Source: Minisyncoccota bacterium (GTDB lineage: Bacteria > Patescibacteriota > Minisyncoccia > JAHISW01 > Tagabacteraceae). From it: a stretch of DNA of 64,000 bases. Every line of letters starts with the position of its first letter. Positions within the stretch are counted from its first letter, which is position 1. Below the pieces are notes generated by a model. It made no database searches and was not told the DNA's origin. It worked only from the letters and a program-made list of their open reading frames with translations. Where the stretch lies: the NCBI GenBank assembly GCA_028711505.1, contig JAQTSC010000002.1:11936-75935 (forward strand), in the 5' to 3' direction. Below, in pieces: positions 9,888-38,861 of the stretch. A program made the position numbers and the translations under genes.

Positions 9888-9924
9888 GATATATTTTTTA
9901 ATTTATTAATTTATTTCTTGTAAA

Positions 9925-18326: not shown

Positions 18327-18836
18327 TTACGGAGTTACGTCGTAGCAAGCATCAGTTCCTGCACCATCAGTCGCATCGCAGTCAGCGTCGTTTCCGTCAA
18401 AACCGAAGTCAGCTGAAGGAGACTTATCTGCATCATTATCAAGAGCAGCATTAGAAGTATCTTCTAGGACCGCTCCAAGATGGTAATAAAGACAGTTGCC
18501 CGCATCAGCCACGGCGCACGCGCCTCCAGCGCTGCTATCCAAATTATCATAAGCATAGCCTGCGAGAGAGCTAGGGTCAGTCGGAACTACAGCTATATAC
18601 GTAGGAGCAAGAGTAGACAATGCATCCGGATAACCAGTTTCAGTGGCGCACGCTGCGTCATAACAAAGCTCAAGCGCCAATTGAATTTGTTTTAAGTCCG
18701 CAATTCTTCTAGCATCTCTTGATTTCTGCCTCGCGCTGTTCAATGACGCCAAAACTACTGACGCCAAAATACCAATGATGGCGATAACCACGAGGAGTTC
18801 AATTAAAGTAAAGCCCTTATTTCTTTTGCTAAACAT
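18327..18836 (-). CDS. pilA: type IV major pilin (PilA-like)
   Basis: Canonical prepilin N-terminus 'KGFTLIELLVVIAIIGILASVVLASL' (G|FTLIE). C-terminal Cys pairs. Confidence 0.85.
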   Translation of the reverse strand: MFSKRNKGFTLIELLVVIAIIGILASVVLASLNSARQKSRDARRIADLKQIQLALELCYDAACATETGYPDALSTLAPTYIAVVPTDPSSLAGYAYDNLDSSAGGACAVADAGNCLYYHLGAVLEDTSNAALDNDADKSPSADFGFDGNDADCDATDGAGTDACYDVTP

Positions 18837-18962
18837 TTTTTAATTCGGTATTAAGTTAATCGACCTTTTGGTTAATTGCTTAATTACAAATTCATTATAA
18901 CGTTTCTGACTTTATTTTTCACGTTTTGTTGTGGATAAGTTTCTTTGCAAGACAACTCCGCA

Positions 18963-20171
18963 TTATACCGCCATCGCGATGTTGTAAATCGGCACCAAAA
19001 CAGAAGCCAGAAGAAGCCCGACACCGACGCCCAAAACAACGGTCATCGCCGGCTCAATAAGACCTATCATTGTTTCAAGAGCGTCGTCCATTTCTCTTTT
19101 ATAGAAACCCGCCAGCGTTTTAAATATAAAATCCAATTTCCCTGTTTCTTCCCCTATTTTTATCATCTGTCCCATAAGAGGCGAAATTTCATGATACCTG
19201 GAAAAACTTTCGGAAATAGTGGCGCCTCCTTTAACCGATTCTATCGTATCTTTTAAAATCGCCCTGTAAATCGGGCTCTCAACCACATCCGATGTTATTT
19301 CCAAAGACCTTATCATGCTCACGCCTCCGGTAATCAAAGTTTCCAGGTTGTCGGCAATACGGGCAAGATAAAGCTTTTGGTATAAAGTTCCAAGATAAGG
19401 AATAGAAAGCTGGAGAGAAGCGACTTTAAGACGGCCATCGGGTGTTTTTGAATATCTCCATAAAAGGAAAACTCCTACTGCCAAAAAAAGGAAGAAAAAA
19501 GCTCCGTAATTTCTCAAAATATCGCTTGTGTACATTACCGCTTTCGTGTAAAGAGGAGCCTCCTGCCCGCTTTCTTTAATAATATCGGTGAGTTTGGGAA
19601 TAACAACAACCATCATTACCACAATTACACCGATAAAAGCGGCAACAACGAAAGCTGGATAGATAAGCGCTTTTTTCGCTTTGCCTATAAGTTCGGCATT
19701 GCGTTCCAGATAATCAGCCAAATGTTTGAAAATTTCATCCAATTTTCCGGATTCTTCCCCTGTCTTCACCATGCTTACGTAAAAATTAGAGAAAACTTTC
19801 GGATATCGCGAAAGCGCTTCCGCGATCCTTGAGCCGCCGCTTATATCCACGACAATGCCATTTAGAACCTCGCGCATAGCAGGATTTTCAATTTCGGCAG
19901 AGAGAAGTTTAAAAGCGCTCAATACTGAAACTTTCGCCTCAAAAAGAGTCGCTATCTGTCTTGAAAGCATCACTATATCTTTTCTTTTCACTTTTTTAAA
20001 AGAAAAAATATCCTTGTCAAAAAAAGGAATCCTGCTTGATTTTGAAACAAGGGAGATTACTATCAGGCCTCTTCTTTGGAGAGAACTTAAGGCGATTTCC
20101 TGGCTTGACGCTTCCAGTTCGCCTTCTTTAATTTCTCCGTTAGGCGTTGTCGCTTTGTAATAAAAAAGCAT
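18963..20171 (-). CDS. pilC: type IV pilus assembly platform protein PilC (GspF family)
   Basis: Two T2SSF-domain repeats with 3 TM segments. 402 aa. Located between pilA and pilT. Confidence 0.9.
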   Translation of the reverse strand: MLFYYKATTPNGEIKEGELEASSQEIALSSLQRRGLIVISLVSKSSRIPFFDKDIFSFKKVKRKDIVMLSRQIATLFEAKVSVLSAFKLLSAEIENPAMREVLNGIVVDISGGSRIAEALSRYPKVFSNFYVSMVKTGEESGKLDEIFKHLADYLERNAELIGKAKKALIYPAFVVAAFIGVIVVMMVVVIPKLTDIIKESGQEAPLYTKAVMYTSDILRNYGAFFFLFLAVGVFLLWRYSKTPDGRLKVASLQLSIPYLGTLYQKLYLARIADNLETLITGGVSMIRSLEITSDVVESPIYRAILKDTIESVKGGATISESFSRYHEISPLMGQMIKIGEETGKLDFIFKTLAGFYKREMDDALETMIGLIEPAMTVVLGVGVGLLLASVLVPIYNIAMAV

Positions 20172-20177
20172 AGAAAA

Positions 20178-21254
20178 TCAAGAATTTAAATCAACGAGCG
20201 CTTTGGGATTTAAAGAAAAAGCAAGCGCGTTGTCCATGCTTATTTCACCGCTTCTCACAAGATTCAAAAGTGAACTATTCAAGCTTATCATCCCTTCTGA
20301 CGAACTCGTTTCTATAACTATATCTATCTCGTGCGTGCGACCTTCGCGTATCAAATTCCGAATCGCCGTGTTTGCTATAAGAAGTTCGTACGCGGGGATA
20401 AGCCCTCCGGAAATCCTCGGCACAAGCCTTTGGGAAAAAATGCCAAGCAAACTTCCCGCAAGCTGCAGGCGAATCTGGTTTTGCTGGTCCGCCTGGAAAG
20501 AATCTATAATTCTGTCCACGGTCTGGCTTGCGTTGTTGGTGTGAAGCGATGAAAAAACCATATGCCCGGTTTCCGCCGCGGTTACGGCAATTGCGATACT
20601 GTCCGGATCTCTCATCTCGCCTATCATTGCCACGTCCACGTCTTGACGGAACATGGCGCGAAGGGCGCGCGGAAAATCTTCCGCGTCAGTCCCCACTTCG
20701 CGCTGATCTATTGTTGATTTGTCTTGTATGAATAAATATTCTATAGGATCTTCAATCGTCACAATATGCTGATTCATTTCATGATTTATTATATCTATCA
20801 TCGCGGCAAGGGTGGTTGATTTACCGTGCCCGGTAGGACCGACTACAAGGAAAAAACCTTGTTGCTTTAAAGCAAATGTCCTTAAAAGATCCGGCACATT
20901 CAGGTCTTCAAGATTTTTTATTTCGGAAGGAATAAAACGCATCGCCAAACCCATGTAGCCTTTCTGCCTGAAAGCGTTACATCTGAAACGAGCTTTATTC
21001 GCGGCATTATACGCGAAATCCAAATCTCCTTTTGCCAAAAGTTCCGTTTTTTGACTTTCTTTTATCATGGAAAAAACGATTCCTTCTATCAATTCCGGCG
21101 TCATCATCGGCTTCTTTACCAAAGGAACCAGTGTTCCGGAAACCCTCACGGTCGGGTGCCTGCCAACGGAAAGATGCAAATCAGACCCGCCTGATTCAAC
21201 GACGGAAGTAACCAAATCATTAATTTCTTTTAAATAATCGATTGAAGGCATCAA
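20178..21254 (-). CDS. pilT: twitching-motility/retraction ATPase PilT
   Basis: PilT-type secretion ATPase: Walker A 'GPTGHGKSTTLAAMI', Asp box, His box. ~358 aa, lacking the PilB N-terminal domains. Confidence 0.9.
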   Translation of the reverse strand: MMPSIDYLKEINDLVTSVVESGGSDLHLSVGRHPTVRVSGTLVPLVKKPMMTPELIEGIVFSMIKESQKTELLAKGDLDFAYNAANKARFRCNAFRQKGYMGLAMRFIPSEIKNLEDLNVPDLLRTFALKQQGFFLVVGPTGHGKSTTLAAMIDIINHEMNQHIVTIEDPIEYLFIQDKSTIDQREVGTDAEDFPRALRAMFRQDVDVAMIGEMRDPDSIAIAVTAAETGHMVFSSLHTNNASQTVDRIIDSFQADQQNQIRLQLAGSLLGIFSQRLVPRISGGLIPAYELLIANTAIRNLIREGRTHEIDIVIETSSSEGMISLNSSLLNLVRSGEISMDNALAFSLNPKALVDLNS

Positions 21255-21323
21255 AATAATTTAAGAAGATAAAATACCGATTATAAAATTACAATTTTAT
21301 ATTTTTGTTCCAAAATTTCCGTT

Positions 21324-21767
21324 TTAAGCTCTCTTCCTCTCCAATACCGACTTGATTTTTTCGACAACTTCAGTGGGCGTAAAATTCGCTTTTACGATGT
21401 AATCCGAAGCGCCAAGCTTTATTCCTTTGTCTATATCGTCTTTTTGCCCAAGATTGCTTAAAATGATTATCGGAAATTTTCCGATAATACCTTCCGTCTT
21501 AAGCGCTTCTAAAAATTCCAGACCGGTCATTTTCGGCATGACAACATCCAAAAGCATGATATCCGGCCGAAATCCGCCTTTTAATTTATTCAGAGCGTCA
21601 TCCGTGCTTTTTGAAGATTCCACACTAAAGCCGGATGATTTGAACTTTACCGAATACATGTCCAAAAGAAAATCATCGTCGTCTAAAAGGAAAACCGTAA
21701 TTACCTTATCCATTGTTTTTTCGGACTCGGGCGAAAGATCGCTTGCGGTTGTGTTTCCTTGAGACAT
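21324..21767 (-). CDS. response regulator receiver-domain protein (CheY-like, stand-alone)
   Basis: REC domain motifs: acidic pocket 'LLDDDD', phospho-acceptor 'LLDVVMP', and 'LSNLG...K'. Confidence 0.8.
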   Translation of the reverse strand: MSQGNTTASDLSPESEKTMDKVITVFLLDDDDFLLDMYSVKFKSSGFSVESSKSTDDALNKLKGGFRPDIMLLDVVMPKMTGLEFLEALKTEGIIGKFPIIILSNLGQKDDIDKGIKLGASDYIVKANFTPTEVVEKIKSVLERKRA

Positions 21768-21801
21768 AATTTTATTTTTGATTAAGAGTGCCGCCGTATC
21801 A

Positions 21802-23511
21802 TCATATTATTTCCCTCAACTGTTCAAGCCCTATGGTGCCGTCTAAAACCTTTAAAATTCCGTCTTGCCTCATTGTTATCATCCCCTGGCTGAATGCTTC
21901 TTTCATTATAGCCGATTCTCCCGGATTTGTTAAAATTATTTTTTCAAGTTCTGGCGTCATCGACATAACTTCAAAAATTCCGATCCTCCCCCTGGTGCCT
22001 CTTGGACACTGCGCGGAAGGCAAGGCTTGATAAATAGTATCGGGGATTTCGACCTTTTCCCTTACTCCGGCAGGCATTTGCTTTATCTCTTCTTCAAGCA
22101 TAGCCCTTACTGTGCCGGAAACTTTTACTCCTTTTTTTGATTCGGGACAAAGAGTCCCGACAAGACGCTGAGAAATTGCCGAAATCAAAGTTGCCGGAAT
22201 AAGAAACGGGTCAACTCCCATATCTATAAGACGCGGAATAACGCCGGTGGCGGTATTCGTGTGAAGCGTTGAGAAAACAAGGTGACCGGTCAAAGCAGAC
22301 TGCACCGCCAGCCGCGCTGTTTCTTTGTCTCGTATCTCGCCAACCATGATTACATCCGGGTCTTGCCTTAAAATTGACCTTAACCCGCTCGCGAAATCAT
22401 AACCGATCTCCGGCCTTACCTGCGATTGGCTCATTCCTTCCAAATTATATTCAATAGGATCTTCCAAGCTCACAGCGTTGCTTTTTTCCTTATCCAAAAG
22501 ATTGAGCATCGCGTAGAGAGTGGTAGTTTTTCCGGAACCGGTGGGACCGGTTATCAAGATCATTCCATAGGGCTTTTCAAGCCCTTCTTTTACCATTTTT
22601 AAATTTCTTCCCAAAAGACCGACTTCTTCCAATTTTTTGAGCCCCTTAGTGGCGTCCAAAATTCTTATCACTATTTTTTCTCCGTAAAAAGTCGGAAAAG
22701 TGGAAACGCGAAAATCAATCCTTTTACCGCCGACGCCCGCCTCAAAACGACCGTCCTGCGGTTTTCTTTTTTCGTCCAATTTCATGTTAGTAAGAATTTT
22801 TATTCTCGCGACAACCGCCTCGTGCACTTTTTTCGGCAAAGTAAGACTGGTGTACAAAACGCCGTCAACCCTGAACCTGACTTTCAGCCGGTCGTAAAGC
22901 GGTTCTATGTGTATATCCGAAGCTCTTCCTTCTATGGCATGCCTTATGATAACGGCAACCATTTTTGTAATCGGCGCCTCTTCGGTGGAAGTGGCCATTT
23001 CTTCCGCCTGTTTTATGTCTTCCGGCAAAGTCTTCTGCGCGATAACCGATTCCAATTCATCAAGAATTTTTACTGTTTCGCCGCCAAGACTTTGATAGCT
23101 ATTCAGGGCGTTTTTCAAATCAGTCGAAGAAATCAGAAACAGCTTGAACGGCATATTCAATTTCGAAGATAAAAACTGAAGAGCTTCTCGGGCCTCCATA
23201 TCGTCCGGATTTACAATCCCCACTTCCATAACTCCCTCTTCAACGCCAAGCGGCGCGAATTTGTAAAAACGAACGGATTCTTCGGGGATATTTTTTATTA
23301 TTTCAAAAGGTAAAGTCAAAGAACCCTCCACTTTTTTTATCGGCAACCCGAAAACTTCGCTTTTTGCCTTAGTTATTTCATCTGCGGAGATATTTCGCTT
23401 AACAAGAATTTCTTCAAGGTCAGCCCCTGTTTCGTCGGCCTCTTTTTTGCTCTTAAAAAGAAGGTCATTGGAAATAATATTATTTTTTACTAAAACTTCT
23501 CCAAAAGTCAT
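21802..23511 (-). CDS. pilB: type IV pilus assembly (extension) ATPase PilB/GspE
   Basis: N-terminal T2SSE_N-like domain, Walker A 'GPTGSGKTTTLYAML', tetra-Cys motif (CPESKKG...C). Confidence 0.9.
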   Translation of the reverse strand: MTFGEVLVKNNIISNDLLFKSKKEADETGADLEEILVKRNISADEITKAKSEVFGLPIKKVEGSLTLPFEIIKNIPEESVRFYKFAPLGVEEGVMEVGIVNPDDMEAREALQFLSSKLNMPFKLFLISSTDLKNALNSYQSLGGETVKILDELESVIAQKTLPEDIKQAEEMATSTEEAPITKMVAVIIRHAIEGRASDIHIEPLYDRLKVRFRVDGVLYTSLTLPKKVHEAVVARIKILTNMKLDEKRKPQDGRFEAGVGGKRIDFRVSTFPTFYGEKIVIRILDATKGLKKLEEVGLLGRNLKMVKEGLEKPYGMILITGPTGSGKTTTLYAMLNLLDKEKSNAVSLEDPIEYNLEGMSQSQVRPEIGYDFASGLRSILRQDPDVIMVGEIRDKETARLAVQSALTGHLVFSTLHTNTATGVIPRLIDMGVDPFLIPATLISAISQRLVGTLCPESKKGVKVSGTVRAMLEEEIKQMPAGVREKVEIPDTIYQALPSAQCPRGTRGRIGIFEVMSMTPELEKIILTNPGESAIMKEAFSQGMITMRQDGILKVLDGTIGLEQLREII

Positions 23512-23571
23512 AAAATAAAAAATTCAAAATTACTGTCTTGCAGTTTGTAATAGGCGAATCGCGGAAATTTA

Positions 23572-23913
23572 TTATATCCCATTCGCGGGAGCGAAAGGAT
23601 TTTCTCTTCCTATTTTGTCAGGGTAAGGAATGACAGGCGTAAGATCTTTAAGCGCTTTAAAATCAGACCGGCCAAAAAATCCAGTATCAATCTCTATGTT
23701 TCTTATGCGCGTTACTATCTCGACAAAATCCTTGCCTACTATACTTTCGTCAGCAAGAATGGCCGGAGAACCAAGATTTATTGAATCGATTGAAGGCAAA
23801 GCCACGGAGCCCGAAGAACTGCCGCCTTTGAAAAAATTCGCATAAATATAGTAGCTAGCCACAGCCAAAATCGCCAAAGACAGAATAAAAATTAAATTGC
23901 GTTTATTAAACAT
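23572..23913 (-). CDS. hypothetical pilus-assembly-associated protein (PilP-like position)
   Basis: 113 aa with a single N-terminal TM. Position between pilB and pilO-like genes. Confidence 0.3.
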   Translation of the reverse strand: MFNKRNLIFILSLAILAVASYYIYANFFKGGSSSGSVALPSIDSINLGSPAILADESIVGKDFVEIVTRIRNIEIDTGFFGRSDFKALKDLTPVIPYPDKIGRENPFAPANGI

Positions 23914-23924
23914 TTTATCGGTTT

Positions 23925-24479
23925 TTATTTTTTGAAATAAGCGTTGGCGGTCATGGAAAATTTATGCACGTTGGTTTCGCCACTCTCGGAAGAAAATTCT
24001 ATTCCCGTAATATCCATGAAACGCAGACTGCGCTGTATCTCGTCAAAAAAAGATTTAGCCGCCGGATAAGAAGCCGAAAAAAACATATTTACCTGTAGCA
24101 CAGAGCGGCTTTCGCCGCCATTTTCTCCGGGCAAATTGCTAGCGGCCTGAGGTTTTGATTCGGCCTGGGTCTGAAGCTGTTCTATAATCACTCCCGACGC
24201 CGACGCGATATTTGAAAGTTCCACCATAAGTCTTAAGCTATCGGCGTTTTCAGGCACCATCTTGGAAAGACGCTCCAAATTTTTCGGGTCTATGGAATTA
24301 TATTTATCCAAAAGTTCATCTCTTATTTTTTTTGTTTCGCGCGATTCGCTAAGCGCCGAATCAAGCGCAGCCTTGTGCGTTTTTAAAGTTTTTATTTGGT
24401 CTAATGCCGGTTTCGTCCAAGAAAGGAAGACTCCGACGGCGGCCAACAGCATTATTATTATTGTAATTCCTCTGCCCAT
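23925..24479 (-). CDS. PilO-like pilus assembly protein
   Basis: Single N-terminal TM followed by a coiled-coil and a periplasmic domain. Gene order pilM-N-O. Confidence 0.45.
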   Translation of the reverse strand: MGRGITIIIMLLAAVGVFLSWTKPALDQIKTLKTHKAALDSALSESRETKKIRDELLDKYNSIDPKNLERLSKMVPENADSLRLMVELSNIASASGVIIEQLQTQAESKPQAASNLPGENGGESRSVLQVNMFFSASYPAAKSFFDEIQRSLRFMDITGIEFSSESGETNVHKFSMTANAYFKK

Positions 24480-24501
24480 GTGTTTAAGATTTAGATCATT
24501 A

Positions 24502-25119
24502 TCATTTATTTATCTCTTCGCTTATTACCAAACTCAAGGAAAAAGACACTTCACCTTTTTCCGTCAAATTAAAATTTGAAAAAGAAAAATCTTCTATGTT
24601 TTTATTTTTATTGAAAACATCCGATTGCTGAGCCAAAGCCTCATAATTTTTAGCCTTCCCCGAAAGCTGCACTTTTATGCTATTTTGCTCTCCTTCGCTT
24701 GAAACGACTTTTGTTTTTCCTTTTTCATTTCCTACCGCTTTGCCGTAAGAATAAGAAAAGTTTGAAAAATACACATCCTTGACCGTCGTCTCTTCAACCA
24801 GCTTAAAAACCCTCGTCGGATAAAGATGATTCCCCAAAAGAGCGCCTGCGTCGGGTATTGAAAAAGAAAGATTCTCCATCTGCGCTATAAGAGACAATTC
24901 AAACGCAGCCTTTGCCCTTTCCAAAGAAGCGGAAAGATCGGTTATCTGCTGGCTTATCATTCGCTTATATAAAAGAGATCCGCCGAAAGCCAAAAGAGAA
25001 ATAGTCAAAAGAAAAACCGAGATTTTCATTAAAAAACCGGAGCTAACCTTGCGGTAATAATCTTTCCCCGTTGAAAAGGAACTTTTTGGCATGAAAGATA
25101 TTTTTCCGGAAGTTTCCAT
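24502..25119 (-). CDS. PilN-like pilus assembly protein
   Basis: Short cytoplasmic N-terminus, single TM, coiled-coil. Immediately downstream of pilM. Confidence 0.45.
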   Translation of the reverse strand: METSGKISFMPKSSFSTGKDYYRKVSSGFLMKISVFLLTISLLAFGGSLLYKRMISQQITDLSASLERAKAAFELSLIAQMENLSFSIPDAGALLGNHLYPTRVFKLVEETTVKDVYFSNFSYSYGKAVGNEKGKTKVVSSEGEQNSIKVQLSGKAKNYEALAQQSDVFNKNKNIEDFSFSNFNLTEKGEVSFSLSLVISEEINK

Positions 25120-25127
25120 AAAAATTT

Positions 25128-26264
25128 TTACAAATCCCTCATCGCGAGACCTGTTGCCACCGCGAACACAGGGCTAATTTGTTTTATGCTTTCCTGAAGG
25201 AAAAGCGGGTATTCTGTTTTTGAAAAAGGGTCGGCAAGCGAAACTTCAACTCCCAAGTTTTTCACCGCCATATCGGTTATTCCCTTTAGAAGCGCGCCGC
25301 CGCCGATTAAAACAATTTTACTCACTGAATTCCCGTATTTTCTTCCGTAAGCAAGCGACATCTGTTTTGATTCGGCAAAAATAAAACTTAAAACAGTTTC
25401 CATTACATTCACGAATTCGCGATACTCCGGCCTCGGCGAAAGACCTATCTCCTGTTTCATCTCCTCCGCCCTTTCAAAACTTATTTTTAATGAATTGGCG
25501 ATGGCGGTTGTTATCGCCTGTCCTCCTTTGTCGACGGCATGTGTCATTCGCAACGCTCCCTTATCTATAACGCTTATCTTTGTAGACGAAGCGCCCAAAT
25601 CAATCAGCATAAACGGAGCTGTCTGTCTGAATATGGAAGAACGCCACTCGCTAAAAACTTCTATCTCAAACGCTTTAACTTTCATTCCGGCTTTTGAAAT
25701 TATATGCTGATATTTCATAATCACTTCCCTTTGAATCGCCGCAAGAAGCACTTCAACCATCTGTTTTTTTTCTGTTTTTCCTCCGGAAGAAAGAAGTTGT
25801 TGTTCTTCCTCTCCTGTTTCATCCGAACCCGCGTCAAGAACCCACCAATCAAGGTCAACTTCGTTCAAGGGGACCGGAATATATTTTCTGGCTTCAAAAC
25901 CTATCATCTCATTCATATTCTTTCCTCCTTCCACCAAAGGAATTTTTATCGTAGTCAAAAAACTGCTTTTCACCGGAATAGAAACAATCGCGTCTTTAGC
26001 GCCCGCTCCCGATTCTTTGGCCAAATCCATTATCATGGAAACCGCCGCTTCCTCTGAAAGTTGAGCGTTCTGCCCTATTGGACGATTCGCGTACGGCCCG
26101 GTGGCAAGTTCTCCGTATGTTTCAAGGATCGCTTTTTCTTTTTCTTTTTTTAGCTGAACTATTTTCACCGATGAACTGCCGATATCAATACCAATAACTC
26201 TTTGGTCTTTCTGCCAAAATTTTAAATCAGGGGAAAGTGTCTTACCGAATAATGTAAAAGCCAT
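25128..26264 (-). CDS. pilM: type IV pilus assembly ATPase-fold protein PilM (actin-like)
   Basis: Actin/FtsA-like fold: 'GIDIGSSSVKIV' phosphate-1 motif, 'LIDLGASSTK', 'LIGGGALLKGI'. Confidence 0.8.
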   Translation of the reverse strand: MAFTLFGKTLSPDLKFWQKDQRVIGIDIGSSSVKIVQLKKEKEKAILETYGELATGPYANRPIGQNAQLSEEAAVSMIMDLAKESGAGAKDAIVSIPVKSSFLTTIKIPLVEGGKNMNEMIGFEARKYIPVPLNEVDLDWWVLDAGSDETGEEEQQLLSSGGKTEKKQMVEVLLAAIQREVIMKYQHIISKAGMKVKAFEIEVFSEWRSSIFRQTAPFMLIDLGASSTKISVIDKGALRMTHAVDKGGQAITTAIANSLKISFERAEEMKQEIGLSPRPEYREFVNVMETVLSFIFAESKQMSLAYGRKYGNSVSKIVLIGGGALLKGITDMAVKNLGVEVSLADPFSKTEYPLFLQESIKQISPVFAVATGLAMRDL

Positions 26265-29322: not shown

Positions 29323-29398
29323 ATTTTTGGAAAGATAGTTAAAACAAAAACAACCTCTGCTCAGAGGTTGTTTTTGTTTTAACGTTTTTCGAAACAAA

Positions 29399-29809
29399 TC
29401 ACCAATTCAATTCAAGCGCGCGGTCAGCGTTGCCATACCGGCCTGTGGAAATTATAGATCCTTCACCGTCATATTCCGCGCTGCAAGTCGCGCCATTATC
29501 AAGACTGCAGGAAATAGTGGCCGTCAGCCCGTCGTCGCACCCGATGGTTGTTTCCTGGTTTACCTGATAAAAACATTCTTCGGCGCCGGCATCGGCCGCG
29601 TAAAAAGCCACGACAGACTGTCCTGATTGTATCGTCATTTTTATCTGCTGGAACATCAAAACAGACACGCCAAGCCCGATACTCAAAAGCATGCTTAACA
29701 TAAGAAGAGAAAGAAGAATAGAAATAGCTCCTTCTTCTCCGCCTTTCCTGTTTAATTTAAAATTCAATGCCAACCTCCGAAAAAAAGTTTTTTTAACCAT
29801 ATCTGTCAT
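29399..29809 (-). CDS. minor pilin-like protein (hydrophobic N-terminal helix, Cys-rich C-terminus)
   Basis: Basic N-terminus then a hydrophobic helix 'ISILLSLLMLSMLLSIGLGVSVLMF'. Last gene of the minor-pilin operon. Confidence 0.45.
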   Translation of the reverse strand: MTDMVKKTFFRRLALNFKLNRKGGEEGAISILLSLLMLSMLLSIGLGVSVLMFQQIKMTIQSGQSVVAFYAADAGAEECFYQVNQETTIGCDDGLTATISCSLDNGATCSAEYDGEGSIISTGRYGNADRALELNW

Positions 29810-29813
29810 GTTT

Positions 29814-30332
29814 TTATCTTAAAGCCACGGAACTTTGAAGATTAATAACATCCGATCCGCCGCTGCTTCTAACACCGGGTTCAAGTTTAAGAATTATAGT
29901 GACAAACGTCCTGTCTGGAGACGTATAGTCTCTTACATAAAAAGCTCCCGAGACTTTCACTGCGCCTTCCGGGGTCACATCAAAAACAGGGACAGTAGAC
30001 GGCGGTTTATAAAAATAAAGCCCGACATCTCCAAATTTATAGACCAAATTTTCTCCGGCTGAATTCGTAATGTCCAAAGTAGACCCGTCTTCCGAAACAG
30101 AGTTTACGACGCTTGTCCTCAATTCCCTTGTTAAAAATTCCAGAGTATAACGTCCGGTTTCATAAAGGTTTTGGACTAAAAATACTTTGCGCTGAGTTTT
30201 GACCACGGAAATTGAAACAGCCGTGATACTCAAAACAAAAGCGCTGAAAATCGCCAAAGAAACGAGGGTTTCTATAATCGTAAATCCCGCCAAAAATTCA
30301 ATATCCTTCTTTTTTAATGTTTTAAGCTTCAT
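29814..30332 (-). CDS. type IV pilin-like minor pilin
   Basis: Prepilin motif 'LAGFTIIETLVSLAIFSAFVL' (G|FTIIE). Confidence 0.65.
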   Translation of the reverse strand: MKLKTLKKKDIEFLAGFTIIETLVSLAIFSAFVLSITAVSISVVKTQRKVFLVQNLYETGRYTLEFLTRELRTSVVNSVSEDGSTLDITNSAGENLVYKFGDVGLYFYKPPSTVPVFDVTPEGAVKVSGAFYVRDYTSPDRTFVTIILKLEPGVRSSGGSDVINLQSSVALR

Positions 30333-30350
30333 GCTTCAGTTTTAAAATTT

Positions 30351-30875
30351 TTATCTCCATCTCCACAAGCGGTCTTCCACGTTTAAAGTGTGCCACCCTG
30401 TCCGAGCCTGCCATCTTATTTCTGAGACAACCTTTATTTCATCGTTGCTTACCCGGGATAAAATTACCCTTCTGTAAAAAGGCGTGTCCTCTCCCTCCTC
30501 GTATTGATAAAGTCCGAAAGAATTTATTTTCAATGGCGCTTCCGGGTCCGCGCAAGAAGCGTCAATTAGCAAAATACTGTCATGAACAGGGCAATAAATT
30601 TGAGAGCTTCCTATCGGATGCGAATAAGGAGTGGTAGTACTGTACCATTCCCAGCTTCTCCAATCGCCGTTTGATTTTCTTATATCCCTTATTATTTCAA
30701 CCCCCTCCTGCGCCAATCCTGAAGCGATAAGCCGCGACTTGCTGTTTTCAACGGCTTTTAGCGAATAATTAGTCATGTTGAAAACTCCGAATATTCCGAC
30801 AATGGCGATGGACGTCGCCACAATAACTCCAACAAAACTCAATCCTTGATTTTTCGGATGACCGGAATTATTCAT
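30351..30875 (-). CDS. minor pilin-like protein (PilV/PilW-like position)
   Basis: N-terminal hydrophobic helix 'LSFVGVIVATSIAIVGIFGVF'. Within the pilin operon. Confidence 0.45.
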   Translation of the reverse strand: MNNSGHPKNQGLSFVGVIVATSIAIVGIFGVFNMTNYSLKAVENSKSRLIASGLAQEGVEIIRDIRKSNGDWRSWEWYSTTTPYSHPIGSSQIYCPVHDSILLIDASCADPEAPLKINSFGLYQYEEGEDTPFYRRVILSRVSNDEIKVVSEIRWQARTGWHTLNVEDRLWRWR

Positions 30876-30885
30876 AAATTTTATT

Positions 30886-31464
30886 TTATTCCGCCAGAGG
30901 AGTAAGAATATCGACTCCTCCTCCGCTCTTTGCCAATACTATATTATAAGTTATATCCGAACCGCTTCCCGCCCACAGTGTTATGGAGAAACTGGAACCA
31001 AAGGGGTCTTCCGAATTGCCGTCAAAAAAAGTAGTCGGACGCGGCGGCTTAAAAAAAATATCAAAAGAAGAGGGCGGGTACTGATAAGAAATCCCCGAAG
31101 GCAAATAAACAGTTTCTAAAATATAATCCCCCGCGTCATATATGTTATTGCTGGTCGCGCATTCGGGAGACACGTCGGCATAAACAGAATAATAATCTCC
31201 CGACGAAGGAAAGATTATTCCGTATCCGCAATATTGTTCTTTTACGTCAATCCCGCTTATGGCCAAATTTTGAGCCCTTCTTATATCCGAAGCCAAACGC
31301 TGCGCAGCTTGGCTTAAATTGTATTTTTTTTCTCCTTCTTTATAATTAGCCGCGATGATTGCCGTTATTATAGTTATGACAGAAACCACGACCATAAGCT
31401 CAATAAGAGTAAACCCGATCCTCAGAAATCCGGCTTTTTTGTTTTTTGGCAACAGACTCATCAT
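30886..31464 (-). CDS. type IV pilin-like minor pilin
   Basis: Prepilin motif 'KKAGFLRIGFTLIELMVVVSVITIITAIIAA' (G|FTLIE). Confidence 0.7.
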   Translation of the reverse strand: MMSLLPKNKKAGFLRIGFTLIELMVVVSVITIITAIIAANYKEGEKKYNLSQAAQRLASDIRRAQNLAISGIDVKEQYCGYGIIFPSSGDYYSVYADVSPECATSNNIYDAGDYILETVYLPSGISYQYPPSSFDIFFKPPRPTTFFDGNSEDPFGSSFSITLWAGSGSDITYNIVLAKSGGGVDILTPLAE

Positions 31465-31495: not shown

Positions 31496-31534
31496 CAAAA
31501 AACATTCCGGCCGCCGATAAGCGCAGCCGGAATG
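31496..31534 (-). terminator. intrinsic terminator after large adhesin-like gene copy B (minus strand)
   Basis: Hairpin CATTCCGGCtgcgcttatcggcgGCCGGAATG followed by TTTTTTG on the minus strand. Part of the duplicated unit. Confidence 0.5.
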
Positions 31535-32155
31535 AAAGAATATCAAGCGTCGGTTGAATTGATTTAAAAAGGAAGTATTTCTTTCCAATTAGGAAGCGGC
31601 CATTTTACTTCCACTGTGCTTAAAAGCGTGCATGATTTTCCGTTTGAATCGGTGATTCTTAAGGAGACTTGTTTTGAGCCTTGGCTTAAAAATGTTGTCA
31701 TCGGGCTTTGTTCTACCGAAGTTCCGGGGGAACCGTCTTGGAATTCCCATACGCGTTCAGTGGTGGAAGCTCCTTCGGTGACCGTTGAACTGTCCGTGAA
31801 TTGAACGACATCGTCTTCGTTGGGCTTGAAAGGAAGCCATGTGTAGACAACGGTCGGGTATTCGACGTAATCCGTGGTAAAAGGAGTTCCGACAATCCAA
31901 TCAGAATGGCCGTTATCGTCATTGTAGACTTTGACGCGCCAATTATACGTTTCTCCGTAGACGAGTTTGTCTGATTCGGGGACATCAATGACGAGAACCT
32001 GCTGTGTATTTATCGTGGGGCTTGGATATGAAAGTCCCGATTGGTTTCTGTCCACTTCAGGCGATAGAAAATCGCTGTTGTTGTCTACCTGCATTTGGAA
32101 TCTTGATTCCGCTTTTTCAAGAGGGTCGGAATACGTCCACGAGAAGGTATGGCGG
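31499..32155. repeat. near-identical direct repeat, copy B (3' end of adhesin gene plus terminator; period 2040 bp)
   Basis: Six-frame ORFs 31616..31804 / 33656..33844 and 31713..31988 / 33753..34028 translate identically. Boundaries approximate. Confidence 0.8.
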
Positions 32156-33522
32156 GCTATATTGCAATATGTGTCAGGACCCGGTTCTGATACAGAGAGG
32201 TCAGTAGCTTCCGGATCTCCGCTTGGAGGCACAAAAGAAGTATTAACCTGATATCCCGAGCCGTTGAAATTCACCCATCCGACGACATCTCCTCCCCATG
32301 CCCAGCCTGACCAATTTCCCGAAGTGTCCATAGTGGCGCCGTAGGCGCCGGGATTCTCTCCTTCATCATATGCCGCAGCCGACGGAGTAAAATTTGAAGT
32401 CCAGCGGGCGATGTCTTTGGAAATTCTAAGTTCGTCAATATAACCATTCACTCCCATATCTCCATTCCAATGCGCTCCGACTCTTAAATCATAATTGCCC
32501 GCGTTTATATTAGTTATAGAAGCATCGGTATAATCAGCGCCCAGCTGAACGCCGTTTACATACATGCGAATCTTTGTTCCGTTTCTCACAAGCGCCAAAT
32601 GATACCAAGTGTGAAGCTGCGCGCTGGTCCAATCTCTCGACATTAAAATTACACTTCCGCTTTTATCGTAAGTGAAGTATAGCGTTCCGTCAGCGTGCCT
32701 CCATAAATTCCAGCCATCCGTGTCTGCCGTTCCCCTGCCTCCTCTTCCGACAAAATTTTGATGAGTATTTATTGAATTTAGATACACCCAAAAATCAACG
32801 GTAAAGTCTCCGCTAAAATCCCAATCGGAACTGTTGGGAGTAGAAAGATAATCTCCGCTGCCGTCAAAAGCGGCGCTGTATCCTCCGAATTTGCTCTGGC
32901 TGGAACTTCTCGCGACATTTCCGTTTGGCGTCATCACATGGGTGAAGGCCGAACTATTCGTCAACCCCATATCATCCATATGCAAAAGCAATTTCGCATA
33001 GCTGTCATTACCTCCAATGCCTCCGCCTCCTGCGGAAGGGTCTCTTAAACTAATCCATCCGTCCCAGCCTCCGCCGTAAGAAAGAGCTCTCGCCCAGCCT
33101 TCTATGGAAAGATTCTCATCTCCTATATCGGCCGGAGAATCAACTCTGGCATCGCAAACGCCCGATGGACAGCCTGAGAGATCAGCCGCGTTAAAAGTTA
33201 TCCATCCGATATTTTCGGACCAGGCAAAACCGGAAAAAATACCAGTGTCCAAATTAAGATTCACTCCGTAGCTGGAGGTTCCGCCTCCGGTCAAATTGTT
33301 AAAACTTATCCATCCGATATTTTCGGACCAGGCGAAACCGGTGGTATTTTGCGCGCTTCCGGCTTCTGCAGGCTCCCAATTCCGCAAAAACATCACGGCG
33401 GAAAAAATAAAAACAACGGAGATTAAAACATTTATTAAAAAACCTAATTTTTCGGATGCCGATTTTTTTATTATGGAAAGATTCATTGTCTTTATTTTAC
33501 GCCAGAAAACGATCAACGGCAA
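31564..33522 (-). CDS. large secreted/anchored adhesin-like protein with repeated 'AWSENIGWISFN' motifs, LamG/ConA-like lectin domain insertion, and C-terminal PKD-like domain (copy B)
   Basis: N-terminal signal-anchor. Tandem 'GFAWSENIGWI(S/T)FN' repeats. Central ~230 aa with a LamG-like pattern (DFTVDFWV...WYHLALVRNG...MYVNGV...GYIDELRI). C-terminal 'WEFQDGSPGT...' PKD-like beta-sandwich. Confidence 0.55.
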   Translation of the reverse strand: MPLIVFWRKIKTMNLSIIKKSASEKLGFLINVLISVVFIFSAVMFLRNWEPAEAGSAQNTTGFAWSENIGWISFNNLTGGGTSSYGVNLNLDTGIFSGFAWSENIGWITFNAADLSGCPSGVCDARVDSPADIGDENLSIEGWARALSYGGGWDGWISLRDPSAGGGGIGGNDSYAKLLLHMDDMGLTNSSAFTHVMTPNGNVARSSSQSKFGGYSAAFDGSGDYLSTPNSSDWDFSGDFTVDFWVYLNSINTHQNFVGRGGRGTADTDGWNLWRHADGTLYFTYDKSGSVILMSRDWTSAQLHTWYHLALVRNGTKIRMYVNGVQLGADYTDASITNINAGNYDLRVGAHWNGDMGVNGYIDELRISKDIARWTSNFTPSAAAYDEGENPGAYGATMDTSGNWSGWAWGGDVVGWVNFNGSGYQVNTSFVPPSGDPEATDLSVSEPGPDTYCNIARHTFSWTYSDPLEKAESRFQMQVDNNSDFLSPEVDRNQSGLSYPSPTINTQQVLVIDVPESDKLVYGETYNWRVKVYNDDNGHSDWIVGTPFTTDYVEYPTVVYTWLPFKPNEDDVVQFTDSSTVTEGASTTERVWEFQDGSPGTSVEQSPMTTFLSQGSKQVSLRITDSNGKSCTLLSTVEVKWPLPNWKEILPF

Positions 33523-33535
33523 ACCTGTTGTGGAT

Positions 33536-33574
33536 AATAAAACATTCCGACCGCCGATAAGCGCAGCCGGAATG
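33536..33574 (-). terminator. intrinsic terminator after adhesin-like gene copy A (duplicate of 31496..31534 with one stem mismatch)
   Basis: CATTCCGaCC...GGCCGGAATG hairpin plus a T-rich tract on the minus strand. Confidence 0.4.
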
Positions 33575-34195
33575 AAAGAATATCAAGCGTCGGTTGAATT
33601 GATTTAAAAAGGAAGTATTTCTTTCCAATTAGGAAGCGGCCATTTTACTTCCACTGTGCTTAAAAGCGTGCATGATTTTCCGTTTGAATCGGTGATTCTT
33701 AAGGAGACTTGTTTTGAGCCTTGGCTTAAAAATGTTGTCATCGGGCTTTGTTCTACCGAAGTTCCGGGGGAACCGTCTTGGAATTCCCATACGCGTTCAG
33801 TGGTGGAAGCTCCTTCGGTGACCGTTGAACTGTCCGTGAATTGAACGACATCGTCTTCGTTGGGCTTGAAAGGAAGCCATGTGTAGACAACGGTCGGGTA
33901 TTCGACGTAATCCGTGGTAAAAGGAGTTCCGACAATCCAATCAGAATGGCCGTTATCGTCATTGTAGACTTTGACGCGCCAATTATACGTTTCTCCGTAG
34001 ACGAGTTTGTCTGATTCGGGGACATCAATGACGAGAACCTGCTGTGTATTTATCGTGGGGCTTGGATATGAAAGTCCCGATTGGTTTCTGTCCACTTCAG
34101 GCGATAGAAAATCGCTGTTGTTGTCTACCTGCATTTGGAATCTTGATTCCGCTTTTTCAAGAGGGTCGGAATACGTCCACGAGAAGGTATGGCGG
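33539..34195. repeat. near-identical direct repeat, copy A
   Basis: See copy B. The 5' ends of the two genes (about 33060-33540 vs 34420-34900) are also similar but more diverged. Confidence 0.8.
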
Positions 34196-34878
34196 GCGGT
34201 ATTGCAGTACGTATCGGAGCTTGGCGAGGAAACCGTAAGATCGATAGCTTTCGGATTGATATCCACCGGCACAAAAGAAGTATTAACCTGATATCCCGAG
34301 CCGTTGAAATTCACCCACCCGACGACATCTCCTCCCCATGCCCAGCCTGACCAATTTCCCGAAGTGTCCATAGTGGTGCCGTAGGCCTCTCCGCTATCTT
34401 TCAAACTAATCCATCCGTCCCAGCCTCCGCCGTAAGAAAGAGCTTTCGCCCAGCCTTCTATGGCAACTGTTTCCTTTCCTATTTTATTTGGCAAAGCGAC
34501 TCTGGCATCGCAAACGCCCGATGGACAGCCTGCGAGATCAGCCGCGTTAAAACTTATCCATCCGATATTTTCGGACCAGGCAAAACCGGAAAAAATACCG
34601 GTGTCCAAATTAAGATTCACTCCGTAATCGGAAGTGCCGCCTCCGGTCAAATTATTAAAACTTATCCATCCGATATTTTCGGACCAAGCGAAACCGGTGG
34701 TATTTTGCATATTTCCAGCGTTTACGGATTTCGAATTTAGAAGAAACATCGCTCCCGAAAAAATAATCGCAACGGAGATTAAAACATTTATTGAAAAACT
34801 AAATTTTTCGGATGCCGATTTTTTTATTATGGAAAGATTCATTGTCTTTATTTTACGCCAGAAAACGGTCAACGGCAA
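33604..34878 (-). CDS. adhesin-like paralog lacking the LamG-like insertion (copy A)
   Basis: The first ~150 aa and the C-terminal ~230 aa are near-identical to 31564..33522. The lectin-like middle region is absent. Confidence 0.55.
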   Translation of the reverse strand: MPLTVFWRKIKTMNLSIIKKSASEKFSFSINVLISVAIIFSGAMFLLNSKSVNAGNMQNTTGFAWSENIGWISFNNLTGGGTSDYGVNLNLDTGIFSGFAWSENIGWISFNAADLAGCPSGVCDARVALPNKIGKETVAIEGWAKALSYGGGWDGWISLKDSGEAYGTTMDTSGNWSGWAWGGDVVGWVNFNGSGYQVNTSFVPVDINPKAIDLTVSSPSSDTYCNTARHTFSWTYSDPLEKAESRFQMQVDNNSDFLSPEVDRNQSGLSYPSPTINTQQVLVIDVPESDKLVYGETYNWRVKVYNDDNGHSDWIVGTPFTTDYVEYPTVVYTWLPFKPNEDDVVQFTDSSTVTEGASTTERVWEFQDGSPGTSVEQSPMTTFLSQGSKQVSLRITDSNGKSCTLLSTVEVKWPLPNWKEILPF

Positions 34879-34950
34879 ACCTGTTGTGGATAATAAAAAT
34901 ACCAGTTTTTATTATTGTTTCCCGGGAAGAATCGCTATAATATTAAATAC

Positions 34951-35574: not shown

Positions 35575-36693
35575 ATGAAACCGAAAATTCTTATTTTTTC
35601 TCTGGCCTATTCTCCTCTTTGGGGCGGAGCTGAAATTGCCGTCAAAGAAATTACTGACCGGATTGCGGATGCGGAATTTTTTATGATTACCAAAAAATTC
35701 AACACCGGAGACGAAAAAAAAGAGCGAATCGGAAACATAAATATTTTTAGAATAAATTCTTCAAAACTTCTCTTCCCTTTTAAAGCATATCTTGCCGCAA
35801 GAAAACTTCACAAAAAAGAAAATTTTTCCGCCGTATGGTCCATCATGGCAAACCGCGCCGGCTTTGCCGCGCTCTTTTTCAAATTCAATTTTCGCGAGAT
35901 AAAATTTCTTCTTACGTTGCAGGAAGGAGACCCCGCTGAATACATAAAAAAACGCGCGGGCTTTCTCTGGATTATCATAAAGCCGCTTTTTAAAAAGATT
36001 TTTACCGAAGCGGATTACATACAAGCCATAAGCCGATACCTGGCCGATTGGGCGGAAAAAATGAATGCAAAATGTCCGATTGAAATCGTCCCGAACGGAG
36101 TCGACCTTTCAAAGGCTAAACCGAAAGCAGAGAAGCGAAAAGCGGACGAAACAATAATTATCACCACTTCCCGGCTGGTGCCGAAAAATGGCATCGCCGA
36201 TTTAATTGATGCCGCAAAGATTTTAACTGAAGAAGAATGTAAGATTGAACTCCAGATTTTGGGCGACGGTCCCGAAAAAAAAGCTTGCGAATTGAGGATT
36301 GCGAATTACGGGTTGCGAGACAAGATAAATTTATTAGGGCATGTCCCGCAGGAACAGATACCTGAATATCTGGCAGCCGCCGATATTTTTTGCCGGCCTT
36401 CTCTTTCCGAAGGGCTTGGCAATTCTTTTCTTGAAGCAATGGCGGCGGGACTTCCGGTTGTAGGGACTCCGGTGGGCGGAATACCGGATTTCATCAGCGA
36501 CGGAGAAACGGGACTTTTTGCCGAACCAGGCAATCCAAAAAGCATCGCCGAAAAAATAAAGATACTAATCAATGACCCTGCCTTAACTCAAAAACTTTCA
36601 GAAAACGGAAAAAAGCTTGTTTTTGAAAAATACGGGTGGAACGGAATTTCTCAAAAAATGTCAAAAATTTTATGGAACTTAATTCACTCCTGA
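35575..36693 (+). CDS. glycosyltransferase family 1 (GT4-like)
   Basis: GT-B fold with the C-terminal 'E...GLGNSFLEAMAAGLPVVGT' EX7E-type motif. Confidence 0.8.
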   Translation: MKPKILIFSLAYSPLWGGAEIAVKEITDRIADAEFFMITKKFNTGDEKKERIGNINIFRINSSKLLFPFKAYLAARKLHKKENFSAVWSIMANRAGFAALFFKFNFREIKFLLTLQEGDPAEYIKKRAGFLWIIIKPLFKKIFTEADYIQAISRYLADWAEKMNAKCPIEIVPNGVDLSKAKPKAEKRKADETIIITTSRLVPKNGIADLIDAAKILTEEECKIELQILGDGPEKKACELRIANYGLRDKINLLGHVPQEQIPEYLAAADIFCRPSLSEGLGNSFLEAMAAGLPVVGTPVGGIPDFISDGETGLFAEPGNPKSIAEKIKILINDPALTQKLSENGKKLVFEKYGWNGISQKMSKILWNLIHS

Positions 36694-38861
36694 CAGAACA
36701 CTTTCGTCTCACCGAATACCAAAAAAAGGCGCTGAAAAAACTCGGGATAAAAACCGCGAAAGAACTGCTTTGGCACTTCCCTTCAAGATACGAAGAGATG
36801 GGGGAGAAAAAAACAATCGCGGATCTTGAAGAAGGAGTCCGCGCCACCATAATCGGCAGAATTTCCAAAATAGATTTTGAAAAAACGTGGAAAAAGAAGA
36901 TAAACATAGCCCACGCGTCTCTTGATGACGGCACGGGAATGGTAAAGCTTGTCTGGTTCCACCAACCGTTTGTGGCGAATCTCTTAAAAGAAGGCGACAG
37001 TGTGCAAATAAGCGGAAAGGTCCAAAAAAACGAGAAGGCCATGCCTGACGGCAGGCAGGGTTTTTATTTCGCCAATCCTGAATACGAAAAAGCGGAAAAC
37101 AACCAGACCTCTTTTGACGCCAAAAACGGCAAAGCCGGGCTTTTGGCGATTTATCCCGAAACAAGAGGTCTTTCTTCAAAATGGTTCCGGATAAAAATTC
37201 AAACCGCGTTAAAAAAAATAGACATAAAAAGTCTACCCGATCCTCTTGAGAAAGAAATCCTTAACAAATATCATCTTCCTTCCTTAAAAGACGCCCTTGT
37301 TTACATTCACACCCCGAAAGACAGAAAAAACGCCGAAGCCGCCAGAAAAAGATTTTCCTTTGAAGAAATTTTCTTTATACAAATATCCAGACAGCAAAAA
37401 AGGAAATTGTGCGAAAAACTCCCGTCATTTGAGGCAAAAGCCGGGAAAAACGAAACAGACTCTTTTGTAAAAAATTTTTCTTTTCCTCTCACAAAATCCC
37501 AGCAAAAAGCCGCGGAAAACATCATTAATGATTTCAAAAAAGGAACGCCCATGGCGCGTCTGCTCGAGGGAGACGTCGGCTCGGGAAAAACTGCCGTCGC
37601 AGCGATAGCAACCTACATAATATTTAAAAACAAACTTCAAACCGCCTACATGGCGCCGACGGAAATTCTGGCGCGCCAGATTTTTGAATCGTTTATAAAA
37701 TATTTCTCAAACACGGGAGCGAAAATAGGGCTCCTGACTTCGTCGGACTGCAGGAAGTTCCCTTCAAAAATACAAACGGAAACTTCGGCAAAAATACCGA
37801 AATCAAAAATGTTCAAATGGATTTCCGAAGGAGAACTGGACATTATCATAGGAACTCACTCGCTTATCCAGGACAAGGTGAAATTTTCGATTCTGGAGAA
37901 AGAAATCTACAAAGATAAAAAGCTTGCCCTGGTAATAATAGACGAGCAGCACCGCTTCGGCACAAACCAGCGCGCCGCTTTGATAAACAAAAAAAACGAA
38001 AGCGACAAAAACAGAATTCCTCATTTTCTCTCAATGACAGCCACCCCTATTCCCCGCACATTAGCGCTCACTGTTTATGGCGACCTTGATTTAACGCTCT
38101 TGGACGAAATGCCTCCCGGCAGAAAAAAAATAGAAACGGAAATAGTCGCGCCAAACGAAAGAGAAAACGCTTATGAAAAAATCCGGGAAGAAATTAAAAA
38201 GGGGCGGCAGGCGTATGTCATATGCCCGAGGATAGAACCTTCCGAAGAAAAAACGGCAAGCCTCATTTCGCTGAATATGAGGGCGGTAAAAGACGAATAC
38301 GAAAAACTTTCCGAAAAAATTTTCCCGGAATTCATAGTGGGCATGCTCCATGGAAAAATGCAGCCCAAAGAAAAAGAAGAGGTCATGGAAGCTTTTGAGA
38401 AAGGAGAAATAAATATTCTAGTGGCGACGTCGGTAATAGAAGTCGGAGTAAACGTGCCGAACGCCACGGTAATAATAATAGAAGGCGCGGAACGTTTTGG
38501 CTTAGCTCAGCTTCACCAATTGCGAGGGCGCGTCCTAAGAAGCACCTACCAACCCTACTGTTTTGTCTTCACGGAATCGGGAACGCAAAAAACTTTGGCG
38601 CGGCTTAAGGCGCTTAAAACCGCGAAAAACGGATTTGAACTGGCGGAATATGATTTGGAATTCCGAGGTCCGGGAGAATTATCGGGCAAAAAACAATGGG
38701 GTATTTCCGATGTCGGAATGGAAGCGCTCAAAAATATAAAAATGGTAGAGGCGGCGAGGGAGGAAGCAAAAAATTTATTATCCAGCGACTCCGACCTAAA
38801 AAAATGCCCGCTCATTAAAGAGCGGCTTGAACAAGAAAATCTCAATATACATTTTGAATAA
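36636..38861 (+). CDS. recG: ATP-dependent DNA helicase RecG (start possibly at Met 36672)
   Basis: N-terminal wedge domain, helicase motif I 'GDVGSGKTAVA', DEQH box 'IIDEQHRFG', motif VI 'QLHQLRGRVLR'. Confidence 0.9.
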   Translation: MERNFSKNVKNFMELNSLLTEHFRLTEYQKKALKKLGIKTAKELLWHFPSRYEEMGEKKTIADLEEGVRATIIGRISKIDFEKTWKKKINIAHASLDDGTGMVKLVWFHQPFVANLLKEGDSVQISGKVQKNEKAMPDGRQGFYFANPEYEKAENNQTSFDAKNGKAGLLAIYPETRGLSSKWFRIKIQTALKKIDIKSLPDPLEKEILNKYHLPSLKDALVYIHTPKDRKNAEAARKRFSFEEIFFIQISRQQKRKLCEKLPSFEAKAGKNETDSFVKNFSFPLTKSQQKAAENIINDFKKGTPMARLLEGDVGSGKTAVAAIATYIIFKNKLQTAYMAPTEILARQIFESFIKYFSNTGAKIGLLTSSDCRKFPSKIQTETSAKIPKSKMFKWISEGELDIIIGTHSLIQDKVKFSILEKEIYKDKKLALVIIDEQHRFGTNQRAALINKKNESDKNRIPHFLSMTATPIPRTLALTVYGDLDLTLLDEMPPGRKKIETEIVAPNERENAYEKIREEIKKGRQAYVICPRIEPSEEKTASLISLNMRAVKDEYEKLSEKIFPEFIVGMLHGKMQPKEKEEVMEAFEKGEINILVATSVIEVGVNVPNATVIIIEGAERFGLAQLHQLRGRVLRSTYQPYCFVFTESGTQKTLARLKALKTAKNGFELAEYDLEFRGPGELSGKKQWGISDVGMEALKNIKMVEAAREEAKNLLSSDSDLKKCPLIKERLEQENLNIHFE

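Follow-up and report, generated by a model that had tools for sequence, protein, structure and literature searches.

Two adjacent genes, here called A and B, lie head to tail on the minus strand of contig JAQTSC010000002.1, part of a metagenome-assembled genome (MAG) of an uncultured, ultrasmall Minisyncoccota bacterium of the Patescibacteriota; the stretch analysed, called the window below, comprises 64,000 nucleotides. The genes are almost identical over some segments and deeply diverged over others. RecA-type gene conversion between lineage-specific tandem paralogs is the best explanation for this mosaic, with a probability that is put at roughly 0.7. Patescibacteria are attached to host cells, which they presumably recognise through their surface and pilus proteins; to our knowledge, almost nothing is known about how these proteins evolve. 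The locus provides a clean and quantifiable case in which a surface-protein family appears to have diversified by tandem duplication and by nested insertion of a lectin-like domain, with partial conversion keeping a common stalk.

Mosaic of identity between the two genes

The original prediction, made from the sequence alone, described a duplication with a period of 2040 bp that took in gene 3' ends, terminators and promoters. The 3' ends are indeed duplicated, but the extent was drawn too small. The repeat consists of two complete genes, and each duplicated unit is an entire gene, made up of a 56-bp leader, an open reading frame (ORF) and a terminator hairpin (unit A, 31499-33542; unit B, 33539-34898). 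The six-frame ORFs from which identity had been read do reflect real nucleotide identity, but those on the plus strand are mere shadows of the minus-strand genes. Likewise, the period of 2040 bp holds for tract 1, the island and tract 2 in the list below, but the 5' part repeats with a period of 1356 bp; the two periods differ by 684 bp because of an indel of 694 versus 10 bp. The features of the repeat are as follows.

33604..34842, minus strand: gene B, 412 aa, NCBI MDD5032769.1, 'PKD domain-containing protein'; ATG start as in the NCBI annotation
31564..33486, minus strand: gene A, 640 aa, MDD5032768.1; the architecture of B plus a nested LamG/concanavalin-like domain
31499..32157, minus strand: high-identity tract 1, copy A; last 198 codons, stop codon, 3' untranslated region and terminator; ends at the unit boundary
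33539..34197, minus strand: high-identity tract 1, copy B; partner of 31499-32157
31503..31534, minus strand: terminator-like hairpin 3' of gene A; intrinsic type, 12-bp stem followed by UUUUUU; -23.4 kcal/mol, z = -4.6
33543..33574, minus strand: copy of the terminator hairpin 3' of gene B; -23.4 kcal/mol, z = -5.4; leader of gene A directly after it
32158..32227, minus strand: diverged island, copy A; 70 bp, about 54% identity to its partner 34198-34267
34198..34267, minus strand: diverged island, copy B; partner of 32158-32227
32228..32346, minus strand: high-identity tract 2, copy A; partner 34268-34386; flanked by the island and by the LamG indel
32347..33040, minus strand: A-specific segment, 694 bp; counterpart in gene B is 10 bp, 34387-34396
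33041..33542, minus strand: intermediate-identity 5' part, copy A; 56-bp leader and codons 1-149; partner 34397-34898
34397..34898, minus strand: intermediate-identity 5' part, copy B; includes the gene B leader, 34843-34898

Alignment confirms the near identity at a period of 2040 bp: tract 1 extends over 659 bp with one mismatch, 31510 G versus 33550 A. This mismatch sits in the terminator stem, where it is the CATTCCGGCC/CATTCCGACC difference and changes a G-C pair to a G-U pair in the minus-strand RNA. Both hairpins fold, as listed, and the earlier description of copied terminators with one stem mismatch is borne out. The longest exact run shared by A and B is 647 bp (31511-32157). It is followed by the island, in which small indels accompany the low identity and the encoded residues are PSGDPEATDLSVSEPGPDTYCNI versus VDINPKAIDLTVSSPSSDTYCNT, and then by tract 2, with 2 mismatches in 119 bp; the identical, diverged, identical order that had been noticed is thus real. 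Beyond tract 2 comes the indel, which is in frame and gives A codons 150-380 (231 residues) in place of 'SGE' in B.

The 5' part (502 bp, leader and codons 1-149) is 88.5% identical, with a synonymous divergence (dS) of 0.26 and a nonsynonymous divergence (dN) of 0.11. It is itself patchy. There is 1 mismatch in the 97 bp of the leader and the first 13 codons; identity falls to about 80% in the signal-anchor region and over residues 116-149, and reaches about 95% in the two WSENIGW repeats. In A as in B, the two GFAWSENIGWISFN repeats of the one gene have about 95% DNA identity to each other over 44 bp (33190-33233 and 33298-33341 in A; 34547-34589 and 34655-34697 in B), which may reflect intragenic homogenisation or a recent repeat.

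The end of unit B and the start of unit A overlap by a short T-run only, in the region 33539-33545. Such a junction would fit an original head-to-tail duplication through illegitimate recombination. The copied promoters of the original prediction did not hold up: the 56-bp leader contains a weak sigma-70-like match, and such matches occur at chance frequency (11 found, with 10.8 expected in shuffled sequence). This sole promoter-like match in the duplicated leader, TTGCCG-17-TAAAAT (33487-33522 and 34843-34878), ends 7 nt from the ATG, with no Shine-Dalgarno-like sequence. A true promoter at this position would make the mRNAs of A and B leaderless or nearly so.

Across the 1350 aligned positions of A and B there are 94 differences, and an alignment with uniformly spread divergence had been named as a result that would refute the original reading. 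The divergence is strongly non-uniform: under uniform scatter, the 647-bp identical run has a probability of at most 9e-27 (an analytic upper bound), and in 200,000 trials of random placement of the differences, the longest identical run was 226 bp. The same pattern is found at codons that encode the same amino acid in both genes. The 3' tract has no differences at 188 such codons; the segment before the island has 1 in 32, the N-terminal part 13 in 112 and the island 9 in 14. These synonymous classes are significantly different (Fisher p = 1.7e-6 and 3.5e-5), with dS rising from 0 in the 3' tract to 0.26 in the N-terminal part and to saturation in the island. Given that the mosaic is visible at synonymous sites, constraint at the protein level cannot account for it. 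The earlier preference for recent conversion or recombination between paralogs over a simple old duplication is upheld by the non-uniform divergence and the three synonymous classes.

The island is diverged in a particular way. The proportion of synonymous differences (pS) is about 1.0, and that of nonsynonymous differences (pN) is 0.28. Near-saturated synonymous change with a pN of only 0.28 argues that the island is old, purified DNA rather than a locally hypermutated or positively selected patch. An inverted segment was considered as the origin of the island and rejected, given that the reverse-complement alignment scores worse (-16 versus 8). The duplication of the whole gene, the LamG domain nested in one copy and the apparent age of an island that might have been taken for fast-evolving all go beyond the original prediction.

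The two proteins and their family

Genes A and B encode proteins of shared architecture, with a signal anchor, a Trp-rich beta domain, an Ig/Fn3 domain and a PKD domain. The PKD_4 family of Pfam scores above its gathering cut-off in both (35-36.6 bits, cut-off 27; E = 4.7e-9 for gene B), and Ig_Rha78A_N matches the gene B protein (E = 5e-6), with an Ig-like domain found in A too. Laminin_G_3 is matched in A only (77.1 bits, cut-off 27.6, E = 2.1e-21; aa 220-369 of the 652-aa ORF). The A-specific segment encodes Gly-rich linkers and this LamG jelly-roll domain, which is nested between the N-domain motifs WDGWI and WxGWAWG. The N-terminal domain has no match to a Pfam or NCBIfam model, and a Foldseek search of the PDB recognises only the Ig/Fn3/PKD part.

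An AlphaFold (AF2) model of B, with a predicted local distance difference test score (pLDDT) of 81.7, consists of an N-terminal helix (11-35), a beta-rich domain with the Trp-rich motifs (47-188), an Ig/Fn3-like domain (198-310) and a PKD domain (320-400). On this model, the island corresponds to residues 192-215, which comprise the linker that joins the N-domain to the Ig domain, strand 198-205 (the first of the Ig domain) and the loop after it. The same region is the most variable and indel-rich part of the family alignment. The outcome is a pair of proteins with the same Ig/PKD stalk and C-terminal tail that differ in the signal-anchor region, the loops of the N-domain, the linker and the presence or absence of a lectin-like head. 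We infer that A and B are secreted or membrane-anchored surface proteins, with a surface or adhesion role.

Type IV pilins or pseudopilins were considered and rejected, as A and B lack the prepilin leader G|F-x-x-x-E and a match to N_methyl or TIGR02532. B is without the Gly and both proteins are without Glu5, and adjoining ORFs do have the motif. The family has a conserved C-terminal tail, LPxWKEILPW, which is found in genes A and B (31567-31600 and 33607-33640) and in homologues P0004-P0117. A similar ending, SPYWREI, closes an unrelated LamG-rich protein of 1037 aa (P0069). Endings of this type could be a C-terminal sorting or anchoring signal shared in Patescibacteria; we know of no published description of such a signal.

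A homology search yielded 1894 matches, and proteins of about 400 aa with the architecture of B are widespread in Patescibacteria as an uncharacterised family. In a genome-contig collection with one genome per species, 570 of 600 candidate stretches encode a relative. Gene B aligns end to end with the ~400-aa homologues; the best relative has only 45-47% amino acid identity. The two proteins are singletons among 15 billion sequences, an exact 24-mer searched for in metagenome contigs was not found there, and a contig search for sequences encoding B found nothing.

For comparison, 80 related loci were retrieved, each with 8 kb to the left and to the right of the family gene. Almost all of them hold a single copy of the family, with a partial second match in 3, and no LamG domain lies within these flanks in any. 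The spacing between WDGWI and WxGWAWG is 251 aa in A, 23 aa in B and 17-34 aa in 50 relatives. Because the relatives are single-copy, lack LamG and share the motif spacing of B, comparison of the sequences points to B as the ancestral form, to a lineage-specific duplication and to the gain of the nested LamG domain by A. A foreign origin of the LamG insert was rejected, as its GC content (0.467) and its GC content at third codon positions (0.44) are inside the genome range. The island variants of A and B have in common a lineage-specific 3-residue length feature that is missing in 13 of 15 aligned homologues.

Of the 80 related loci, 9 contain repeats of 200 bp or more at 85% identity or above, and partial duplication and homogenisation of surface-protein modules appears to be common around the family. 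Such module repeats in relatives make the A/B locus less singular. Four of the nine loci were inspected. Three paralogues in L004 (690-2908) have N-terminal modules that are 92-98% identical, with different C-termini. In L029, a 333-bp intragenic domain repeat (6608-7624) is 99.7% identical inside an 1100-aa fusion protein; in the same locus, the ORF downstream of the family gene (9298-10317) has an N-terminal module like those of the three L004 paralogues and a C-terminus that, judged by eye only, resembles a tail-fibre intramolecular chaperone (Peptidase_S74-like). A C-terminal module with 86% identity is common to the N-domain protein and an 806-aa neighbour in L080 (3498-3941 and 5783-6226). 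Two 910-aa Cys-rich paralogues that flank the family gene in L047 share 1 kb at 87% identity (5522-6531 and 10161-11161).

Proposed gene conversion and competing explanations

By the explanation we prefer, a unit comprising the leader, ORF and intrinsic terminator of a surface-protein gene would have been duplicated head to tail in this lineage. Copy A would then have gained the LamG (lectin-like) domain in a loop of the N-terminal beta domain, and repeated non-reciprocal homologous exchange of the RecA type between the copies would have followed. One or more older conversion events could have left the 5' 500 bp at about 88% identity, and very recent events could have made the terminal 659 bp and the separate 119-bp segment almost identical. 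The conversion tracts would stop where homology is lost, at the unit end, the LamG indel and the 70-bp island. Such stops would explain why the 119-bp tract and the 659-bp tract are each homogenised on their own. Three divergence classes in one gene pair imply at least two or three recombination events, whatever their direction. The island may be spared because its deep divergence and small indels block heteroduplex formation; alternatively or additionally, selection may keep it different, as a linker co-adapted with the presence or absence of LamG. The order of events, the dependence on RecA and the cause of island sparing are all deduced from the pattern of identity. RecA could also act on the 647-bp identical direct repeats to delete or amplify the 2040-bp unit, such that copy number may vary in the population.

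A second tandem pair in the window, of pilin genes, has a like mosaic and supports conversion. Several points weigh against it. The collections searched hold no close relative, and the best, at 47% amino acid identity, is too distant for a phylogeny of paralogues and orthologues segment by segment. Bubble-popping or polishing in the making of a MAG, the source of this contig, can remove true differences between near-identical repeats, and one mismatch in 659 bp may overstate the identity. Greater divergence in the island than in the rest of the gene would not be predicted by a single duplication followed by conversion, and would require either an older duplication or import from another allele.

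An alternative explanation takes the identical parts as original and the differences as later additions: a very recent duplication of the whole unit or unequal crossover, after which the 5' 500 bp, the island and LamG were imported into one copy by homologous recombination with divergent alleles or paralogues of other strains or species. The near-saturated island has near-identical sequence on both sides, which could have acted as arms for recombination, imports of different origin would yield three divergence classes as easily as conversions of different age, and neighbouring surface genes in relatives do share modules (86% in L080, 92-98% in L004). We consider such imports unlikely nonetheless. 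The scenario calls for no fewer than three independent imports into a single gene, no donor-like sequence was found (besides the pair itself, nothing exceeds 47% identity to either copy), the base composition of LamG is native, and the 3-residue length feature of both islands suggests a common local origin. The mosaic could instead be an artefact of assembly, with single-gene strain variants with and without LamG strung in tandem or a repeat consensus copied to both positions. The contig does come from a MAG, an exact repeat of 647 bp exceeds short-read k-mers and is hard to resolve, and no independent assembly of the organism was found. It is, however, very unlikely that the assembly created the pair: the terminator-leader junction shares only the short T-run, which is far below the k-mer length of an assembler, so a coincidence in the assembly graph is unlikely to have made it. 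Furthermore, both ORFs are intact and both terminators fold, the isolated single mismatches in the near-identical tracts and the 12% divergence of the 5' part are unlike a copied consensus, and the second, independent tandem pair with the same mosaic lies 25 kb away.

The original prediction had also suggested that the locus may be phase- or antigenically variable. Phase variation, cassettes of the pilE/pilS type or a diversity-generating retroelement (DGR) acting on the island would be in keeping with surface-protein genes in a region rich in type IV pilus genes, with a short variable block between identical flanks and with a neighbouring pilin pair whose 5' halves are identical and whose 3' halves vary. 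The window scans give no hold for this suggestion, and programmed variation of any of these kinds is highly improbable. Searches of the window by tblastn, blastn and blastn-short found no third paralogue, silent cassette or third copy of the island or of any gene part, and A and B are complete with their own terminators, so neither is a silent cassette. The mismatches in the island are of all types and are accompanied by indels, rather than being adenine-specific. A Pfam scan found no reverse transcriptase, integrase, transposase or invertase among the window ORFs of at least 200 aa. The only simple-sequence repeat at the locus is an A7 run, against a genome background of 1.7 such runs per kb, and Tandem Repeats Finder (TRF) finds nothing there; no inverted repeats flank the leaders. 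Nothing found at the locus or in these scans shows a programmed variation switch, and the A/B locus alone illustrates a well-known mechanism and opens no new question.

A broader idea is that recombination among neighbouring surface and pilus genes is a routine toolkit of Patescibacteria, with homogeneous handles and swappable heads that alter host attachment. The Ig/PKD stalk of A and B and, in the pilin pair, the N-terminal half may act as the handles, and LamG, the linker island and the C-terminal halves of the pilins as the heads. If this were true, members of a population would exchange, lose or amplify their heads and thereby alter attachment to the host. Two independent mosaic pairs in this one window of 64 kb, and the partial near-identical repeats of 9 related loci out of 80, agree with the idea and are no demonstration of it; as a general statement it is quite unlikely to hold. 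In either case, the locus is a concrete target for population-level reads, in which copy number, chimeras and island variants could be sought.

Related systems and the rest of the window

The closest analogue of the A/B locus is found in the adhesin paralogues babA and babB (and babC) of Helicobacter pylori, in which the terminal regions are kept near-identical by intragenomic gene conversion and chimeras arise by recombination (PMC4552749). As in A and B, near-identical ends surround a divergent internal region, which in the bab genes determines binding. However, the bab genes are at dispersed loci rather than in tandem, and their products are outer-membrane beta-barrel adhesins with a fold unlike that of A and B. 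Conversion of the bab genes is documented by experiment and across strains and is coupled to CT-repeat phase variation, whereas for A and B conversion is proposed from sequence, and the locus has no such repeats.

Concerted evolution of duplicated prokaryotic genes, such as tufA/tufB and the rRNA operons, has been surveyed (PMC6053082). The likeness to A and B is in the non-reciprocal exchange of the RecA type and in the zero synonymous divergence of converted tracts. Genes of the tufA/tufB type are mostly dosage-sensitive core genes that are homogenised over their full length; homogenisation of A and B is partial, with a domain insertion and a diverged island. The pilE/pilS system of Neisseria is also a mosaic of identical and variable mini-blocks at a pilus-related locus, but uses many promoterless silent cassettes and a dedicated initiation site, whereas A and B are two complete, terminated genes and are not pilins. 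DGRs are common in genomes of the candidate phyla radiation (CPR), and a short hypervariable stretch of a surface protein beside an otherwise identical repeat would resemble their products. The A/B locus differs in having no reverse transcriptase among the window ORFs of at least 200 aa, no non-coding template repeat and no adenine-specific substitutions, and a DGR was rejected on these grounds. The locus is a new example of a known process, which differs from the known cases in its tandem layout, in belonging to an uncharacterised family of Patescibacteria and in combining conversion with the gain of a nested domain.

The second tandem pair consists of pilin genes on the minus strand (6730-7317 and 7390-7974) with the TIGR02532 / N_methyl motif. 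The two differ at 2 nt between a point 7 bp ahead of the ATG and the end of codon 97, and over the remaining 97 codons they share 65% nucleotide and 48% amino acid identity, a mirror image of the A/B mosaic. Homologous-recombination genes are also present in the window, with recA at 1188-2216 (RecA, E = 5.8e-138) and recG at 36636-38861 (wedge and helicase domains). Next to gene A lies a further group of ORFs, which is likely the operon context of A and B.

29399..31464, minus strand: four small ORFs directly downstream of gene A, outside the repeat; two with a prepilin N-terminal methylation motif

A complete type IV pilus gene set on the minus strand (17451-26264) consists of PilM, PilB-like and PilT-like ATPases, PilC, a pilin and the prepilin peptidase (pilD). 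General linkage of the A/B family to pilin genes was considered and dropped, as a pilin-like ORF lies within 3 kb downstream of the family gene in 9 of 57 relatives, near the background rate. The remainder of the window is core chromosome, including gyrA, infB, ftsH, ligA, hisS and ftsA. A perfect palindrome (29338-29383), with 22-bp arms and a 2-nt loop, separates the pilin-like operon from a convergent gene for an RRM-type RNA-binding protein and looks like a bidirectional terminator. A 26-bp exact direct repeat (46380-46405 and 46506-46531, 126 bp apart) lies at the start of an ORF with an SPFH/Band-7 domain.

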